The notes under the pieces: model-generated
What the model was told of the DNA's origin: nothing
Database searches by the model: none
Seen by the model: the letters and a program-made list of their open reading frames with translations, nothing else
Shown: in pieces, positions 17,726 to 25,313 of the stretch
Layout: each line of letters begins with the position of its first letter
Numbering within the stretch: the first letter of the stretch is position 1
Program-made: the position numbers and the translations under genes
Source of the DNA: Pseudomonadota bacterium
Lineage (GTDB): Bacteria > UBA10199 > 2-02-FULL-44-16 > JAAZCA01
Direction: 5' to 3'
DNA: 59,945 nucleotides
Assembly: GCA_043822785.1 (NCBI GenBank)
Contig: JBDRBN010000046.1
Coordinates: 1-59,945, forward strand

Positions 17726-19174
17726 GTGAAAAATTCTTATGTCCTGGTTGTGGATGACGAGGTAGATGCAGCAGATCTGCTTGCCACATACCTGAGAAAA
17801 TTCGACCTTGATTCAGATGCCGTCTATGGTGGAACAAAGGCGCTTGAGCACATAAAAAAGAAAAAGCCTGATTTGATTATCTTAGATCTTCTTATGCCAG
17901 ATATGGATGGGTATGAATTTACAGCCAAACTTAACTCTGATGAATCCACTGCAAATATCCCGATTATAATGTTGACAGTTGATTCTACTCAAAAAGATAA
18001 GGTTAAGGCCTTGAAGATGGGGATAGATGATTATGTTATAAAGCCATATGATATAGATGAGTTGATTGCGCGAATCGAGGTTATATTAAAAAGATCAAAG
18101 GCTCATGAATTTACACCTCGTGAGGGAAGCGGTATTGGTATCAGGGAAAGAAAGCGTTTGGAGTTTTTGAAGTATTTGGAAGAAAAAAGAATCGAGAAAA
18201 TCGAGCCCGAATACAATCTTCAATCCAGAAGTGGATATTGTTATAAAGTTGCGGCCTACTTCTTTAATGCCAGCGATTTTTCAGAAATAGAAGAACTGAG
18301 GCATCTCACGGACAATCATGTCTTGAAACCGGAGTTCTTTGATAAGATACTGGTATGCCCCTTTTGTTTACATCACGATATTAATATTCGCGAGACTTGC
18401 CCTACCGATCACAGCGCTGACATTAGTGTCCACGATGCTTTTCATCACTATCGCTGCGGTTATGTTGGAACGGAAGATGAATATCTTCAAGGAATCAGGC
18501 ATGTTTGTCCCAAGTGTTTTCAAGAGCTCAGACACGTTGGCGTTGATTATGACAGGCCAGGTAAAATTTATGTTTCCAATACAACAAAAGAAAAATTCAC
18601 CGACCCTGTTGTCTACTGTCAGTGCAGGAACTGCAAAAAATCATTTAATGTAGATGATGCAGTGAGACAGAATATTTATGCCTATGTCGTAACGGACAGG
18701 GCCTTAGATGTGATTGCAGAAGGTGCGTTTACGCCGATCAGCCTCGAGCAGGAGTTGATAGACCAAGATGTAAACATATATAATTTGAAATATTTCAGGA
18801 CAAAGCTTGCTGAAGAAGTAGGCCGTTGCAAGACCTTTAATAGGCACCTTTCCATCATCCTTGTTGGAATCATCAATTTCGATTCTCTAATTTTAAACTA
18901 CGGTGAAGCCGTTACTAAACGGAAATTGCAGGAATTGGCGTTGATGCTCAAACAGAGCTTGCGTGAAGTTGATATTCCAGCTCGCTACGATAAAAACGAT
19001 TTTATAACTCTCCTTCCTGAAGCGGAAAGGGAAAAGGCTGAATCGATCATCCGCGAGCTTAAAGAAGAGATACCGGATGGGCTTGAGGTCGGTTTTAAGA
19101 TTGTCTCGTTCCCCAAAGATGCAGACACAGAGGCAAGCCTTATTGAAACACTGATAAATAGCAGATACATATAA
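17726..19174 (+). CDS. REC + Cys-rich zinc-ribbon output domain (TackOD1-like) + degenerate GGDEF
   Basis: REC; CPFC, HHYRCGY, CPKC..ELRHVGVDY, CRNC; REVD I-site then RYDKNDF in place of RYGGEEF. Confidence 0.8.
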   Translation: MKNSYVLVVDDEVDAADLLATYLRKFDLDSDAVYGGTKALEHIKKKKPDLIILDLLMPDMDGYEFTAKLNSDESTANIPIIMLTVDSTQKDKVKALKMGIDDYVIKPYDIDELIARIEVILKRSKAHEFTPREGSGIGIRERKRLEFLKYLEEKRIEKIEPEYNLQSRSGYCYKVAAYFFNASDFSEIEELRHLTDNHVLKPEFFDKILVCPFCLHHDINIRETCPTDHSADISVHDAFHHYRCGYVGTEDEYLQGIRHVCPKCFQELRHVGVDYDRPGKIYVSNTTKEKFTDPVVYCQCRNCKKSFNVDDAVRQNIYAYVVTDRALDVIAEGAFTPISLEQELIDQDVNIYNLKYFRTKLAEEVGRCKTFNRHLSIILVGIINFDSLILNYGEAVTKRKLQELALMLKQSLREVDIPARYDKNDFITLLPEAEREKAESIIRELKEEIPDGLEVGFKIVSFPKDADTEASLIETLINSRYI

Positions 19175-19176
19175 CA

Positions 19177-20631
19177 ATGAAGTTGAGAAATATTAAAATC
19201 GTAGATCTGGAATTACTGTCAGATTTTAGGGTAGGGGGGCCTTCCCAAAAGAAACTGTCAGCTGTGTCCGTGCTGGCAATTGTCCTGCTATCGCTTGCGA
19301 TATTATCTTACATATATTTTGTATTTTTTGAGAGAGATCTTTCTTGGTTGTTCATTTCAATAAATGAATACATAACGTACTGTATCGCAAATGTCATGGC
19401 CAGACCAACTTGGCAGAAGTTTCTCCTTTTTGCTCCTGCATTGATGTTTGATACAGTCAGATATTATCTCTCAAATACGATCATCTTTTTTATAGATATC
19501 TTTCGGGGAGGCGCATCTTATGAAGATGGAGGACCGGATTTCTATCCATTTGTGAGCATAATATTGCCTGCTTATAATGAAGGTCCAAGGATTAGGGGCA
19601 CCATCAATTCATTGCTTGCAAGCGATTATAAAAACTTCGAGATTATAGTCGTCGACGACTGTTCGACTGACACGACGCCAGCGATCTGCAGAGAATTTGA
19701 GCGGAGAGGGTTGATAAAGTTTATCCGCAAAGAAATCAGAGGTGGCAAGCCGTCGTCGCTGAATTATGGTTTTCAATTCACCAAAGGCGAACTCATTTTC
19801 CATTTTGATGCAGAGGTTGCAGTTCTTCCCAATACAATCAGCGAGGCTATAAAGCCGTTTAAAGATCCAAAGATCGGAGCTGTCAGCGGCAACCTCAAAG
19901 TGCACAATGATAAAAAAAGCCTCGCAAGTCGACTTCAAGCCGCTGAATATGGAATGGTAATCAGCCTGCAGAGGAGGTGGCTATCAGCCACACGTACGCT
20001 GCAGATAGCGTCGGGCGCATTTGGTGTGTTCAGGCGTGAGGCGATTGAGATGTCAAAGGGGGCTGATCCGGAGCATGGCGATGACTTGGACATTACTCTC
20101 AAAGTCAAAAAGCTCGGTTACAGGGTCGTTTTTGCGCCCAGGGCTATTGCATTAACCAACGTCCCCGAAAGTTTTTGGGTTCTATTCCAGCAAAGGGTGC
20201 GCTGGGACAAGTGCTATGTAAGGATAAGCTTTAGGAAACACAGAAACATCTCTGATATTTCTAAGTTTAGATTCGCAGATTTTCTTATATATGTGTTGGA
20301 TATCGTCTTTAACCTGTTATTGATGTTGGTCTTCCCAATTTACATTGTGCTCGTCGCAATTTTTGTGCCACATTTATTTTTGTTCATTATCGTCATTACC
20401 TATCTTTTCTACGTTATTATGAATATGTGGCAGTTTATTATGGTAGTTTTACTTTCAGATACGCGCTCAAGAGATTGGGTTTTTGTACTGTATGCACCGC
20501 TTTATTTTGCATATAGTGTTTTTTTGTGGGTAGCTAGAATGTTAGCATATACTATAGAGTTGTTGAGGCTAAAATTTATGAAGAGCGGGTTTTTGCCTGA
20601 AAAAATCTGGGATAGCATGCCCAAATACTAA
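19177..20631 (+). CDS. processive GT2 membrane synthase (PgaC/IcaA/YaiP-like)
   Basis: PAYNE, VDDCSTD, GGKPSSLN, FDAE, SGAFGVFRR, GDDLD, QQRVRW; N- and C-terminal TM helices. Confidence 0.9.
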   Translation: MKLRNIKIVDLELLSDFRVGGPSQKKLSAVSVLAIVLLSLAILSYIYFVFFERDLSWLFISINEYITYCIANVMARPTWQKFLLFAPALMFDTVRYYLSNTIIFFIDIFRGGASYEDGGPDFYPFVSIILPAYNEGPRIRGTINSLLASDYKNFEIIVVDDCSTDTTPAICREFERRGLIKFIRKEIRGGKPSSLNYGFQFTKGELIFHFDAEVAVLPNTISEAIKPFKDPKIGAVSGNLKVHNDKKSLASRLQAAEYGMVISLQRRWLSATRTLQIASGAFGVFRREAIEMSKGADPEHGDDLDITLKVKKLGYRVVFAPRAIALTNVPESFWVLFQQRVRWDKCYVRISFRKHRNISDISKFRFADFLIYVLDIVFNLLLMLVFPIYIVLVAIFVPHLFLFIIVITYLFYVIMNMWQFIMVVLLSDTRSRDWVFVLYAPLYFAYSVFLWVARMLAYTIELLRLKFMKSGFLPEKIWDSMPKY

Positions 20632-21906: not shown

Positions 21907-22272
21907 ATGCCATTTCCATTTGAGCATCTTGATGTATATAAGAAATCCTTAGATTTTGTTGAATCAATTGAGTCCTTGACCAACGACTTGAAGGGCAAAG
22001 CATCCTACAGCATTATTGACCAACTTTCACGCGCAGCATTATCGATTCCCTTGAACATCGCCGAGGGCAATGGCCGCTGGCATAAAGGTGAGAAACGACA
22101 ATTTTTCTGGATTGCACGTGGGTCTGTATTTGAATGCGTTCCGATTTTGCAAGTTCTTCACAGAAAATCTTTGATCAATGAACAGCAATATGCTGGTTAT
22201 TATGAACGGCTCGATATCATCGCCAAGATGCTCACGAATTTGGTGAAATCTGTGGAGGAGTTGAAAAGATGA
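21907..22272 (+). CDS. four-helix-bundle protein (23S rRNA IVS / bAvd-like family)
   Basis: FEHLDVYKKS, DQLSRAALSIPLNIAEGNGR, FFWIARGSVFEC. Confidence 0.92.
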   Translation: MPFPFEHLDVYKKSLDFVESIESLTNDLKGKASYSIIDQLSRAALSIPLNIAEGNGRWHKGEKRQFFWIARGSVFECVPILQVLHRKSLINEQQYAGYYERLDIIAKMLTNLVKSVEELKR

Positions 22273-23054
22273 TGAAATATCGCTCATTCGGAAATACCGG
22301 CCTCAAGTTTTTCCCTCTTGGCCTTGGCACGATCTGGTTTGGTCGCCAATGGCCGCCGAACAATACTTCATATAAATCTCCCTCATTCAAAGAAATTTCC
22401 GAACATCTCATGCTGGCTTATAAAACAATGGGCAATCACGAGGGGATGGTCATGATTGACACCGCTGCCGCATATGGGGATAGCGAAGTACATATTGGAG
22501 AGTTTTTGAGAGAAAACCCGGCAAACGCGGCAAGGTTCTTCATAGCTACAAAATGGGGGGAAGATTTTGATGTGGGAAGCGGTAGCTCCACTGTGGATCA
22601 TTCTGCAGAAAATCTGCATCAATCTTTTGAGCGCAGTGTGAAGCGCCTGGGAAGGGTGGATTTGCTTTACCTTCATAAGGCGAATACTGCCGTTCTCAGA
22701 GATGCTACGATTATTCGGGAAATGGTGAAGATCAAGGAAACTGCTCGGGTACAATTGCTGGGAACGTCGATTTCTGATGCGCTGATATTGAGGGATGCTA
22801 CCGAAAAGGACTTCCTTACCCCTTTTGATGTCATTCAAATGCCAGCGTCAGTCTTCATGGAAGAACGCGGTATCGTCCAGTCCCTTTGTGAAGCCGGAAA
22901 AGCTATTGTGCTGAACTCTCCAATTCGTAAATTAATCGGATCAGATCCGAAATTCTGCTACGCTGAATTGCTGGCTCGACCAGAAGTTTCTATGATTTTA
23001 ACAGGCACGAGAACACATTTGAAAGAAACGGTTGGATACCTTGATGAAAAATGA
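22269..23054 (+). CDS. aldo/keto reductase
   Basis: YRSFGNTGL, LGLGT, IDTAAAYGDSE, IATKWG, DLLYLH. Confidence 0.85.
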   Translation: MMKYRSFGNTGLKFFPLGLGTIWFGRQWPPNNTSYKSPSFKEISEHLMLAYKTMGNHEGMVMIDTAAAYGDSEVHIGEFLRENPANAARFFIATKWGEDFDVGSGSSTVDHSAENLHQSFERSVKRLGRVDLLYLHKANTAVLRDATIIREMVKIKETARVQLLGTSISDALILRDATEKDFLTPFDVIQMPASVFMEERGIVQSLCEAGKAIVLNSPIRKLIGSDPKFCYAELLARPEVSMILTGTRTHLKETVGYLDEK

Positions 23055-23221
23055 CCGAAACACAGGTTCGACGTCCTGAAGGATGGGCGCGCATAAAAAC
23101 AGGGAATAGGGGTTGGGGAACATTGTACGTTCGCAACGTTCTTTGACGCTTGAGACAAACCGCGTTTGGCCCATTCTATGATATCTGTGGGGCACTAGCT
23201 CAGTTGGGAGAGCGATGCGTT

Positions 23222-23292
23222 GTCACTTCGTTCTGACAATCAAGGCTATTTGTTCTGAGCAAAGCTCAGAACTTTATTATAGCTTTTGTATG
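23222..23292 (+). mobile_element. mini insertion element copy 1 (71 bp) in anticodon loop
   Basis: GTCACTTCGTTCTGACAATCAAGGCTATTTGTTC-[hairpin]-TTTATTATAGCTTTTGTATG, flanked by TT on both sides. Confidence 0.8.
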
Positions 23293-23294
23293 TT

Positions 23295-23368
23295 GTCGCT
23301 TCGCTCTGACGATTAAGGTCATTTGTATCCACGCTAATGCGTGGATACTTGATTAGATTCTTTGTTCG
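23295..23368 (+). mobile_element. mini insertion element copy 2 (74 bp), tandem to copy 1
   Basis: GTCGCTTCGCTCTGACGATTAAGGTCATTT-[GTATCCACGC/GCGTGGATAC hairpin]-...TTTGTTCG, TT on both sides. Confidence 0.78.
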
Positions 23369-23396
23369 TTCGCAACGTCGGGGTCGAGGGTTCGAA

Positions 23397-23470
23397 CGTA
23401 CAGAGGCTATAATAAAGTGACCCCGCTTAGGCGGGGGAACAAATAGCCTTGATCGTCAGAACGAAGTGAC
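23397..23470 (-). mobile_element. mini insertion element copy 3 (74 bp), inverted, in T loop
   Basis: Reverse complement GTCACTTCGTTCTGACGATCAAGGCTATTTGTTC-CCCCGCCTAAGCGGGG-TCACTTTATTATAGCCTCTGTACG; AA on both sides on + strand. Confidence 0.82.
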
Positions 23471-23523
23471 AATCCCTTGTACGGTTTAAAATTTGACGAT
23501 TGAATCACAGACGCGGGATCAGT

Positions 23524-23596
23524 GGGGCACTAGCTCAGCTGGGAGAGCACCACGTTCGCAACGTGGGGGTCGAGGGTTCGAATCCCTTGTGCTCCA
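23524..23596 (+). tRNA. tRNA-Ala(CGC), intact
   Basis: GGGGCAC/GTGCTCC with G3:U70, CCACG-TT-CGC-AA-CGTGG, GGTTCGAATCC; CCA not encoded. Confidence 0.94.
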
Positions 23597-23654
23597 CTGA
23601 TCCCGCGTCTTCTTATGTAGAATCTACGAACAGGGCGCGAGTAGCGCGGAGGGA

Positions 23655-23673
23655 AATCCCTTGTGCTCCACTG
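23655..23673 (+). repeat. direct repeat of tRNA-Ala 3' end (att-like)
   Basis: AATCCCTTGTGCTCCACTG identical to 23581-23599. Confidence 0.85.
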
Positions 23674-23718
23674 GTCCAATCAAAATTCAGGTGCCGAAAT
23701 ATGTCCCATTGTTTTCTT

Positions 23719-23789
23719 GTCGAGGGTTTGAACATACAAGTGCTATAATGAATGACCCAGCTTCAGCGGGGGAACAAATAGCCTTTGAT
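23719..23789 (-). mobile_element. tRNA-Ala T-arm fragment with partial mini element copy 4
   Basis: GTCGAGGGTTTGAA then CATACAAGTGCTATAATGAATGACCCAGCTTCAGCGGGGGAACAAATAGCCTT, parallel to 23383-23450. Confidence 0.75.
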
Positions 23790-23924
23790 ATTGCTTACGC
23801 TCTCTGCGATTTGTGCACTACATAAGGGGGAGGGCAGAAGGGGTAGATCCCTGGTCCCTGTCCCGGGAATTCCCGATTTCCTTTCGTTCGGGGTCATGCC
23901 GCAGGGATCGAGCAGGAGGGTGCC

Positions 23925-25313
23925 ATGGCGAGATCAGCATTTCGGCGTTTAACCGTCGGCGTTGTGTTGTATATCATCTCCTTTTCGCTCTTCGGATGCG
24001 GTGGGTCCGGCAGCGCGGCAGGCACTGCGCAGAGCGTCGCCGACTTTGAGCGTTTTGAGGAAACGACGCTCAATGCCTCGACGCTATTCACCACGAAGAG
24101 CGAGGGAACAGTTGCCCAGGTGGCGGGCGTTCAGGTCGCCGTTGGTTCTATGAACCAGACGCTCGACGTCACGTTTGTCGACGAAAACGAACAGGTCCTG
24201 GCAGGGCCGATCACGCTTGCGCTCGAGAGCGGATCGAATAACGACATCCTTCTCTTCAGTGCGACGGGTGTCGATGCTTTCGGCTACGAGGGCTTGACGC
24301 TCAAGGCCTTCGCTGGTTTCTCTGATGCCGAGCGGCCGGTGTTCTATGTGGGTTTCGGGCCGCAAGGATTCTTCGTCGATGCGCAGGCGGGAGCTTTCTC
24401 GACTTCGGCCGCCCGCGCGTTCAAGTCCAACAACGATGTCACGCGGCAGCGGCGGTTGGATTTTTTAAACTACTGGACGAACCTCGAGAACAACGCGGAA
24501 CTCACAGACATCGAGCGCTTCGCGTCTCTGGTGCAATATATTGTGACGGTCAACGCTACCAATGTGGATACGCGCGACGACGCTGTGGACTACATCCTGG
24601 ACGACATGGTCGACCTGTTCGTCGGCGGCGGCTTTCAGGATCTCAAGGGATGGCTCATGGCGAATACTGAGCCGGTTCTGGATTCAGGCAGCGCGAACGA
24701 ACACATCTCGGATCCTGCTCCATACACCGGTTTCAGTCCATTGCTGCAGAAGGGCGAGGGGTGATTTCGGCACTTCGCCTGCAACGCCTCGATGGACCGG
24801 TGGGCGCAATACATCGATGACAGCGTGACCTTCTGGGCAGCAGTTGCTCAGGGCGGAGACTGGAACCCCTGGAATGACCCTACGGGCGACATCAACGCCG
24901 ACTTGATCACGAATGCCCTCGGGATCGATTTTTACAACTACCTTGTAGAACTCGCGAGCGCCGGCACGCTGACCCAGGGTAACGTGCGGCAGTGGATCAT
25001 CGACAACTTCGGCAATCACCCGCCCGAACTCGTAACCTTCACCGCGACGGCCCGGACATCCGACATCAACGATTACACCATTGCGGCCACCGATTGGGAC
25101 CAGGAGGCGTTGACCTACAGTTGGCGGTTGGAGGGCGATGCTGCCGATTGCGGGACTACCGCGAGCGCAGGCGACCTCTTCAGCTGGGATCACACAGGTT
25201 GCTGCCCCATTATGATGTCGAACACGAACGTGATCGTCGAAGTCTCCGACGGGACGTGGATCGTGAGCTACACCCATCCTGCGACGCAGATGGGAGAGTT
25301 CACCGATTTTTGA
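23925..25313 (+). pseudogene. GC-rich putative lipoprotein with C-terminal Ig-like domain, interrupted by one in-frame TGA (24762-24764)
   Basis: ORFs 23925-24764 and 24792-25313 are in the same frame with open codons between; lipobox LFGC; NHPPEL..ATDWDQEALTYSW. Confidence 0.6.

Follow-up and report, generated by a model that had tools for sequence, protein, structure and literature searches.

A lineage-restricted family of small non-coding elements lying directly 3′ of TT, often in tRNA loops

The tRNA-Ala(CGC) locus and its element copies

We examined a window of 59,945 nucleotides (nt) from a Pseudomonadota bacterium (GenBank assembly GCA_043822785.1, contig JBDRBN010000046.1, positions 1 to 59,945 of the forward strand), in which short non-coding elements interrupt pieces of tRNA-Ala(CGC). 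The window's own genome is called G000 here, and its family, with 13 genomes including G000, is called f1. Around a single intact tRNA-Ala(CGC), the region 23100-23800 was found to contain many pieces of this tRNA and, among them, three complete copies of the element (A, B and C), copy D and one remnant. The original prediction had described a second tRNA-Ala(CGC) cut by three related elements, a fourth partial copy and a junction remnant, and all of these are present in the sequence. The features are as follows, with the terminal TT counted as part of the element here and throughout.

23123..23139, + strand: remnant, in which the element right end TTGTACGTT is joined to CGCAACGT, from the tRNA-Ala anticodon loop and stem (3′ half), all other parts of the copy being deleted (direct-repeat family D3, 94% alike to 23362-23378)
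23189..23221, + strand: positions 1-33 of a decayed second tRNA-Ala(CGC), up to the anticodon-loop TT (repeat D4, 94% alike to the intact gene; no call by ARAGORN)
23222..23294, + strand: copy A, 73 nt, sense to the tRNA in the anticodon loop (nhmmer E 1e-15; 86 bits with covariance model R1 and 75 bits with R2)
23295..23370, + strand: copy B, 76 nt, head-to-tail after A (nhmmer E 3e-18; 92 bits with R1)
23371..23394, + strand: positions 34 to about 57 of the decayed tRNA-Ala, CGCAACGTCGGGGTCGAGGGTTCG (repeat D5, 97% alike to the intact gene)
23395..23470, − strand: copy C, 76 nt, antisense to the tRNA in the T loop (nhmmer E 2e-22; 100 bits with R1; inverted repeats I1 and I2)
23471..23482, + strand: remaining T loop and stem of the decayed tRNA-Ala, AATCCCTTGTAC, ending prematurely (compared with 23581-23597)
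23524..23597, + strand: intact, uninterrupted tRNA-Ala(CGC) (ARAGORN; Rfam tRNA, 63.7 bits)
23640..23677, + strand: GCGCGGAGGGAA followed by a copy of the tRNA-Ala 3′ end, ATCCCTTGTGCTCCACTGGTCC (repeat D6)
23719..23730, + strand: isolated T-arm 5′ fragment, GTCGAGGGTTTG, preceding copy D (repeat D2)
23731..23791, − strand: copy D, antisense in a T-loop fragment, with the left end (about 18 nt) gone (nhmmer E 1e-13; 29.9 bits with R1, E 0.002; alignment)

Copies A and B occupy the gap between T33 and C34 of the decayed tRNA-Ala(CGC). When this tRNA was read from the sequence, its anticodon stem had no pairing and its acceptor 3′ strand was gone, and it was therefore taken to be a pseudogene. 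The remnant junction recurs together with its downstream flank in a metagenome locus (L164), and the isolated T-arm fragment was also found, with an identical upstream flank, in genomes G001 and G012. The fifth copy of G000 lies on another contig (G000:C19:16274-16351), downstream of tRNA-Ser(GGA) at a distance of 190 bp; GCGCGGAGGGAA is on one side of it and a copied tRNA-Ser 3′ end on the other. Sequence comparison showed that 23640..23677 is the empty counterpart of this filled site, which reads GCGCGGAGGGAA, the element and then TCCCACTCCCTC.

Separately assembled contigs from two public runs of different studies were identical to the window over 23195-23496 (X1, from a run that may be the window's source sample) and 23286-23510 (X4), with zero differences, and the arrangement is therefore no assembly artefact. 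Misassembly, the objection that the original prediction had raised against itself, was thus ruled out.

Two other parts of the window were noted. A gene for a PF05635 protein (23S-rRNA-intervening-sequence protein) and an aldo/keto reductase gene lie at 21907-23054, between tRNA-Arg and the tRNA-Ala pieces; this gene pair looks inserted, because the three tRNA genes are adjacent in G001. Positions 17726-19174 encode a response regulator in which a TackOD1 output domain is combined with a GGDEF domain.

Distribution, structure and target sites

The size and spread of the family were examined with profile and covariance searches. An nhmmer profile of the copies recovered exactly five places in the window's own genome (2.3 Mb, 87% complete), with E values of 1e-13 to 2e-22, the next match having E 0.22. 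A covariance search of the kind proposed with the original prediction placed the family beyond G000: the first model (R1, from four copies) had matches in 9 of 101 related genomes, and the second (R2, from 38 copies) had 43 matching places at E≤0.001, spread over 9 of 93 genomes from the class. The R2 carriers were eight of the 13 f1 genomes counting the window's (7 of the 12 others) and the one genome of family f24, and none of the 79 genomes of the 22 remaining families of the class carried the element. Copy number per genome was low, from 1 to 19, with the maximum in G001 (99% complete). In metagenomes we found 14 contigs or stretches with the element, some of them head-to-tail arrays. The f24 carrier, G074, has a 112-nt form in tandem that keeps mainly the left-end core, including its covariation. 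At a contig end of the same genome (G074:C169, L018 1700-1830), two 112-nt element-like units are followed by tandem 52-nt units that each start with the left-end core TTGTCATTTCATTCC... and are otherwise unlike the element.

Searches of plasmids, phages and viral contigs gave no match, the left-end pattern occurring in viral contigs by chance only, and an Rfam scan of 22500-24500 at E≤10 returned tRNA only and nothing on the elements. The left-end sequence was not found in papers, and nothing on small repeats targeting tRNA loops was found in the literature, supplements being outside the search. A hammerhead ribozyme was considered because the left end resembles the CUGANGA box by eye; it was rejected, as there is no GAAA and no helix III when compared with the hammerhead consensus. 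A coding reading was likewise rejected: an ATG precedes four of the G001 copies, but no frame is open there and the flank is a palindromic repeat. The family is lineage-restricted, small and non-coding, and seemingly undescribed.

The element occurs in short forms of 67-81 nt and long forms of 105-125 nt, and its ends are asymmetric. The left end reads GTC-RY-TTC-RY-TCTGAC, and the right end is TGTWCGTT in short forms and GCGGTT in long forms. In order, the left end is followed by AAGGYYATTTGT, a GC-rich hairpin of free sequence (P3), ACTTTATTATAGCYYT and TGTWCGTT. Within the left end lies a 2-bp stem with a 3-nt loop, which covaries and is paired in every sequence (AU 28 / GC 8; CG 34 / UA 2). 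After it comes a long, interrupted hairpin made up of P2 (AAGGCTAT/ATAGCYTT) and the GC-rich P3 stem, the latter in the types CCCCGC/GCGGGG, CCACGC/GCGTGG, CCCAGC/GCTGGG and CGAGC/GCTCG. Long forms have the left two-thirds in common with short forms, carry an additional 3′ hairpin and end in GCGGTT or GCGGTG. No open reading frame (ORF) and no terminal inverted repeats (TIRs) were present in the element, the GTCRC... and ...GTWCGTT ends being non-complementary, which confirmed both of these points in the original prediction. The ends and central hairpin that it had described also stood; the covarying left-end stem and the 105-125-nt variants had been missed.

Covariation was measured on 37 distinct sequences against 500 shuffles. 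The results revealed that 88.5% of the paired cells were paired compared to 79.3% after shuffling, with none of the 500 shuffles reaching the observed value, in an alignment that was fitted to the model and so favours structure somewhat. Cells altered on both sides numbered 72 against 29.8 expected, among related copies that are non-independent, and when the 3′ partners were slid out of register pairing fell to 31-50%. The hairpin is thus under selection for pairing, as had been suggested. In addition, P2 is rich in G:U pairs, which are C:A on the opposite strand, pointing to the element's own strand as the folded one.

We then tabulated the targets of 30 complete copies. The dinucleotide on the left was TT in all 30; the −1 position was a purine in 28, the +1 position C or G in 29 and the +6 position C in 23. 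T loops accounted for 12 copies (10 complete, 2 half), all antisense at GGRATT/CRAACC (the slash marks the insertion point), and T-loop copies were never sense although TTCGAA is a palindrome. Anticodon loops accounted for five, all in tRNA-Ala and all sense, at CACGTT/CGCAAC or CACGTT/GGCAAC, and the other 13 had different locations: heptamer-like repeats, repeats of other kinds and sites upstream of genes. T loops also contain copies that the table does not include: D, a partial copy in G001:C21, the second copy of L172 and, in G001 and G003, long forms at tRNA-Ser and tRNA-Gln. In G000, all five copies sit in tRNA-derived loops, against 363,799 TT sites genome-wide, and the six exact GGRATTCGAACC sites all lie within intact, uninterrupted tRNA genes. 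These data showed that the element is placed directly 3′ of TT in one orientation, and that its preferred targets are the antisense T-loop strand GGRATT/CGAACC and the sense tRNA-Ala anticodon loop CACGTT/CGCAAC. The earlier proposal of a TT/CG target in tRNA loops therefore held in part: TT was constant and 17 of the 30 copies were in tRNA loops, but the +1 position could be C or G and 13 copies were elsewhere.

The dinucleotide at the right-hand end was TT in 26 of the 30 copies and TG in four (an Arg T loop, the Ala T loops of G012 and G001, and an Ala anticodon loop); a long copy at G001:C16, in a T loop of Gln, likewise ends in TG (GCGGTG). Intact tRNAs read TT at this position. Since TG occurs at different sites whose tRNAs read TT, the final two bases probably belong to the element, and the duplicated TT of the original prediction was not supported, the right-hand dinucleotide most simply being read as travelling with the element. 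Judged from these sequences, target duplication is probably absent. The element end WCGTT resembles the preferred target RSR-TT, which explains stacking and nesting. When the table was read by eye for guide-like pairing, no covariation was seen between left-end variants and target flanks. Among short repeats, G000:C2 has a heptamer tandem repeat, (GGCTAAC)n, at about 20060-20150 where G001 has GCTTGCG-type short repeats, and four G001 copies (L021, L029, L032 and L038) lie inside such short repeats.

The tRNAs hit were Ala, Ser(GGA), Gln(CTG) and Arg(ACG). Of the ten T-loop copies read in context, nine lay no more than about 300 bp from an intact gene of the same tRNA, and the tenth was cut by the contig end. 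Copies would thus appear to persist only in redundant or broken tRNA copies beside an intact gene, presumably because hits in working single-copy tRNA genes are lethal, and hits would survive where they fall in a redundant copy or in a 3′ fragment that an integrating island has left behind. In G004:C90 (L246, about 1500-1545), a tRNA-Ala(CGC) is represented by its 3′ part, which begins in the anticodon loop, has 100% identity from position 33 onward and borders on foreign-looking, non-tRNA DNA with an ORF; the piece looks like the far end of an integrated island, and no integrase was found within 1.5 kb. At the tRNA-Ser of G003, a tandem unit of 193 bp (tRNA fragment and element) occurs three times, which could come from plain unequal crossing-over. 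A Val-Arg-Ala locus that includes a broken copy of Ala was found in five genera. Simple inheritance is opposed by the finding that the Ser and Gln sites hold a short form in one genome and a long form in another, with differing hairpins.

Evidence of movement and the search for an enzyme

Filled and empty sites were then compared. The copy at G001:C15 reads ...CATCTGCGTTGTT (in short, ...CTGCGTTGTT), the element (GTCAC...GTACGTT) and GCCCGCAAAC, and its empty partner, two paralogous repeat copies in G010, reads ...CATCTGCGTTGTTGCCCGCAAAC (in short, ...CTGCGTTGTTGCCCGCAAAC), so that what the filled site has gained is the element with its terminal TT. One arm of a G001 palindromic repeat is element-free and reads AAGTTGCCCAC, and the opposite arm reads AAGTT, the element and GTCCAC. 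A nested copy at G001:C21:369 was inserted after the TTTGTT of another copy, and the sister locus is without the outer left part. For the G001:C20 copy, the orthologous intergenic region in G010 is 84 bp shorter and element-free. At five G001 insertion loci both flanks are adjacent in G000, where the copy is absent; in the interval upstream of a gene read by eye as rplJ, G000 holds only a short look-alike, TTGATCTAGGCGCTATAGCT, which may be a decayed copy. Copies 93-95% alike were found at non-orthologous places in G001 and G010. The head-to-tail arrays in metagenomes (L159, L161, L162 and L166) contain 3.1 and 2.7 units with a 77-nt period, 98-99% alike, those of L159 and L162 lying just downstream of genes, and the genes adjoining copies and arrays are housekeeping genes. 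The tandem stacking noted at the window locus was therefore borne out elsewhere, and the empty sites that the original prediction had called for exist, in the G010 repeats and the arm of the G001 palindrome. Collectively, we are highly confident that this is a real, once-mobile element family with a TT target rule.

The repeats that hold these copies were also noted. The host repeat of the G001:C15 copy (L034 about 1440-1760; L232; L233) is unrelated to the element, about 200 nt long, bounded by TIRs (GGGGACCTCTAATAACCGCCCA...) and present at at least six places in G010. The palindromic repeat of G001, TCAA.AAAAA...AGGAGAAGAGACGTATATGTCCAAGTTGTCCACAA ... TTGTGGGCAACTTGGACAT, occurs at four places (L033, L035, L047 and L057); all four hold the element in the same arm, and repeat and element may therefore have spread together. 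A joint in X2 was considered as an empty allele and rejected, being an ordinary tRNA-Ala of another genome.

To look for the mobilising enzyme, we surveyed transposase and recombinase domains in the 13 f1 genomes, where incompleteness of metagenome-assembled genomes (MAGs) limits each absence given below. Y1_Tnp (HUH) domains were found in all 13. The IS110 DEDD domain PF01548 was present in five, with three matches in G000, and was not found in G001, which is 99% complete and has 19 copies, or in G006, G007 and G009; the surroundings of DEDD genes had no element-like ends. Resolvase (PF00239) was present in six, with one match in G000, and was not found in G001, G010, G006, G007 and G009, and Y2_Tnp (PF04986) was present in three and not found in G001, G010, G003, G006, G007 and G009. 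No integrase was found beside any copy read. We also looked for a longer element with the same left end, and none was found in the own genome, in five relatives (pattern search), in the left-end loci read in G003 (3 contigs, 100% complete), or in the species-genome collection, metagenomes and viral contigs. The left-end pattern gave 71 stretches in all species genomes, mostly chance by the covariance-model filter, and the left-end-only matches of G001 were truncated copies, long variants or chance. The earlier description of a non-coding, TIR-less and site-specific mini-element, apparently non-autonomous, was thus supported.

Several loci were read along the way. A truncated copy in L067 (G001:C20 90000-100500) is found just upstream of the gene for a methylase of type I restriction-modification, which has a helix-turn-helix at its N terminus, and not beside a recombinase; the ORFs that follow, named by eye, are specificity-subunit-like and otherwise defence-like. 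A 329-amino-acid (aa) Y1_Tnp gene is bracketed by 26-nt inverted repeats (GGGGTCAAGTCTTGACAT...) in L144 876-1913 (G001:C9) and L238 about 850-1900 (G010:C30), and this unit looks mobile because its places differ in two genomes of one genus. In G010 an isolated 3′ piece of tRNA-Ser, TTCGAATCCCACTCCCTCCGC, which begins in the T loop, adjoins the right end of the unit. G012 contains a canonical IS605-type element in two copies, 94% alike (L225 116-1678 and L226 453-2014), with a 133-aa TnpA and a second ORF, a TTAC left flank/target and 8-bp hairpins, CCCACGAC-TTTA-GTCGTGGG, at both ends.

Possible mechanisms and relation to known systems

We propose, at a little under even probability for identity and mechanism taken together, that these are small non-autonomous mobile elements moving as a single strand by means of a Y1 enzyme. 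The proposal is built on anatomy, not on linkage: the absence of TIRs, the probable absence of duplication, the fixed left motif, the orientation, the strand-specific structure and the stacking. The element would fold as a single strand, and a trans-acting HUH/Y1 tyrosine transposase would cut and rejoin the folded strand, a "peel and paste" like that of IS200/IS605 or of repetitive extragenic palindromes (REP) and their REP-associated tyrosine transposases (RAYT). Insertion would take place immediately 3′ of TT, with a net gain of the element, itself ending in TT.

A number of observations weigh against this proposal. The element has only a 2-bp left-end stem and one large hairpin, compared to the two 8-bp end hairpins of the G012 IS605, and its folding energy is equal for both strands (z −3.9 to −5.0). 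IS608 has a lagging-strand bias; sense and antisense insertions within one pseudo-tRNA are unlike such a simple bias. The presence of Y1 discriminates nothing, because Y1 genes also occur in five f1 genomes without the element. No Y1 gene adjoins a copy, the flanks of nine G000 Y1 genes and of 12 Y1 loci share nothing with the element, and the Y1 genes examined own other palindromes, one type having a 26-nt inverted repeat (GGGGTCAAGTCTTGAC...) and another GTGCCAGGCAC upstream. Many copies lie at the same four tRNA loci in several genera, so that many insertions may be old and the independent tRNA-loop events may number only 5-7; much of the family may be old and inactive. Finally, no circle junction or empty allele was seen in the read data, which consisted of low-depth contigs of DNA runs only.

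The likeness to IS200/IS605 would be superficial if the elements were moved by an enzyme of a kind never linked to such elements, that is, a host or mobile protein reading GTC-RY-TTC-RY-TC and TT in tRNA-like loops. We consider this unlikely, though it is consistent with the finding that none of the four known TIR-less transposase families was linked to a copy, with a 2-bp left stem and single large hairpin that fit no described family, with the lack of any Rfam, plasmid, phage or viral match and of a paper containing the left-end sequence, and with the distant carrier G074, which keeps only the left-end core with its covariation. However, this is an argument from absence: MAGs often miss repeated mobile genes, and four enzyme families were surveyed. 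It is decidedly less probable that a recombinase using TT as a 2-bp core acts in trans, be it a DEDD enzyme of the IS110/IS1111 type, working with a guide RNA, or else a serine recombinase or IS607-type transposase. TT stands on both sides in 26 of the 30 copies, insertion is oriented and site-specific without TIRs, and G000 has both DEDD and Resolvase matches, yet each domain was missing from the genomes listed above, including G001, so that the IS110 lead of the original prediction was not sustained. Moreover, a right core of TG at at least four tRNA sites reading TT is not predicted by exchange between matching cores, the targets share little besides TT, and nothing resembling the element's ends surrounds the DEDD genes. 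A rolling-circle Y2 element, IS91- or Helitron-like, could insert at a dinucleotide without duplication and build arrays by repeated rounds, which would suit the missing TIRs, the probable lack of duplication, the hairpin before the 3′ end and the head-to-tail arrays; with Y2_Tnp in just three of 13 f1 genomes, and an insertion point that does not follow GTTC or CTTG, the IS91 target, we regard it as highly improbable.

T loops and anticodon loops are classic integrase targets, and the copies might instead be miniature derivatives of a tRNA-targeting integrative island, that is, joined left and right attachment sites (attL and attR) moved by its tyrosine integrase. The two loop hot spots, the loci full of tRNA 3′ fragments and the G004 tRNA-Ala 3′ fragment abutting foreign-looking DNA all accord with such an origin. 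Against it, the T-loop target GGGATTCGAACC and the junction ..GTACGTTGTCAC.. have only TT in common and no 6-8-bp core, a result that also left the tyrosine-integrase lead of the original prediction without support; in addition, 13 of the 30 copies are at non-tRNA sites with unrelated flanks, and the copies read have no integrase beside them. We give this origin very little weight. Slightly more, though still little, was given to a structured RNA or DNA module that would have spread through duplication and gene conversion and been retained for its function, for instance as a terminator, a small RNA or a 3′ element stabilising mRNA. Compensatory changes keep its pairing, A and C score terminator-like in the element sense, the L159 and L162 arrays follow genes and some sites are common to genera, but spread of this kind is opposed by the exact filled/empty pair inside an unrelated repeat, the nested copies, the exact TT ends in unrelated contexts and the copies in either orientation inside dead tRNA fragments. 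A function after insertion could exist alongside mobility.

When compared with known systems, the element is most like a palindrome-associated transposable element (PATE) or a REP-type element, yet it does not have one hairpin at each end and lacks a linked enzyme. With PATEs, which are non-autonomous IS200/IS605 derivatives, the element shares the absence of TIRs, probably the absence of duplication, asymmetric ends, conserved hairpins, oriented insertion 3′ of a short fixed motif, the absence of an ORF and hosts with Y1 genes. PATEs differ in having a motif of 4-5 nt, as opposed to TT in a weak RSR context, and one hairpin per end, as opposed to a 2-bp left stem and one central hairpin; the element is also much shorter and prefers tRNA loops, and no cognate tnpA was found. 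REP sequences and their mosaic or paired forms (BIME, REPIN) are, like the element, short, structured, non-coding and intergenic, with compensatory stem changes and possible terminator-like behaviour, and RAYT-like genes are abundant in these genomes. However, REP sequences flank their RAYT gene in inverted orientation, whereas no RAYT gene has the element beside it and palindromes of other kinds accompany the RAYT-like genes that were read; the element is also without a GTAG or CGTC tag and has defined asymmetric ends and precise TT insertion.

By the features tested, the element is not a MITE (a miniature transposable element with inverted repeats), an IS110 or serine element or an integrase att scar. 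With IS110/IS1111 it shares the absence of TIRs, a short core on both sides and oriented, site-specific insertion, but the search for the enzyme came up empty in most carriers, and the right-hand 'core' depends on the element, which is too small for a guide RNA of known size. A published account describes IS110/IS1111 as favouring repeated palindromes, and MITEs as having TIRs and a true target duplication (PMC3184786). Bacterial MITEs such as Correia and Nezha are also small, non-coding, multi-copy, foldable and non-autonomous; the element differs in being without TIRs and apparently without duplication. tRNA-targeting tyrosine integrases have the same T-loop and anticodon-loop hot spots, but they depend on several bp of core sequence in common with the target and bring along a new 3′ end for the tRNA, whereas the element has only TT in common with its target and destroys the gene that it enters.

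Mobile elements that are both small and TIR-less are rare, and the mechanisms discovered to date, those of IS200/IS605 with TnpB and of IS110 with its bridge RNA, have each proved biologically and technically important. The compact anatomy, strict dinucleotide target, oriented tRNA-loop preference and clear covariation of the present family make it a concrete substrate for enzyme discovery. The element also explains assembly breaks at tRNA loci in these genomes and is a source of unannotated pseudo-tRNAs, and spare or broken tRNA copies can serve as sinks for a tRNA-directed parasite. An unlikely but further-reaching possibility is a new transposition system, in which an enzyme would read the tiny structured left end and pick TT in tRNA-like DNA hairpin loops by shape as well as sequence. 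If so, the broken-tRNA arrays would be a product of element activity, through target duplication or repair, and not merely places where the element is tolerated.

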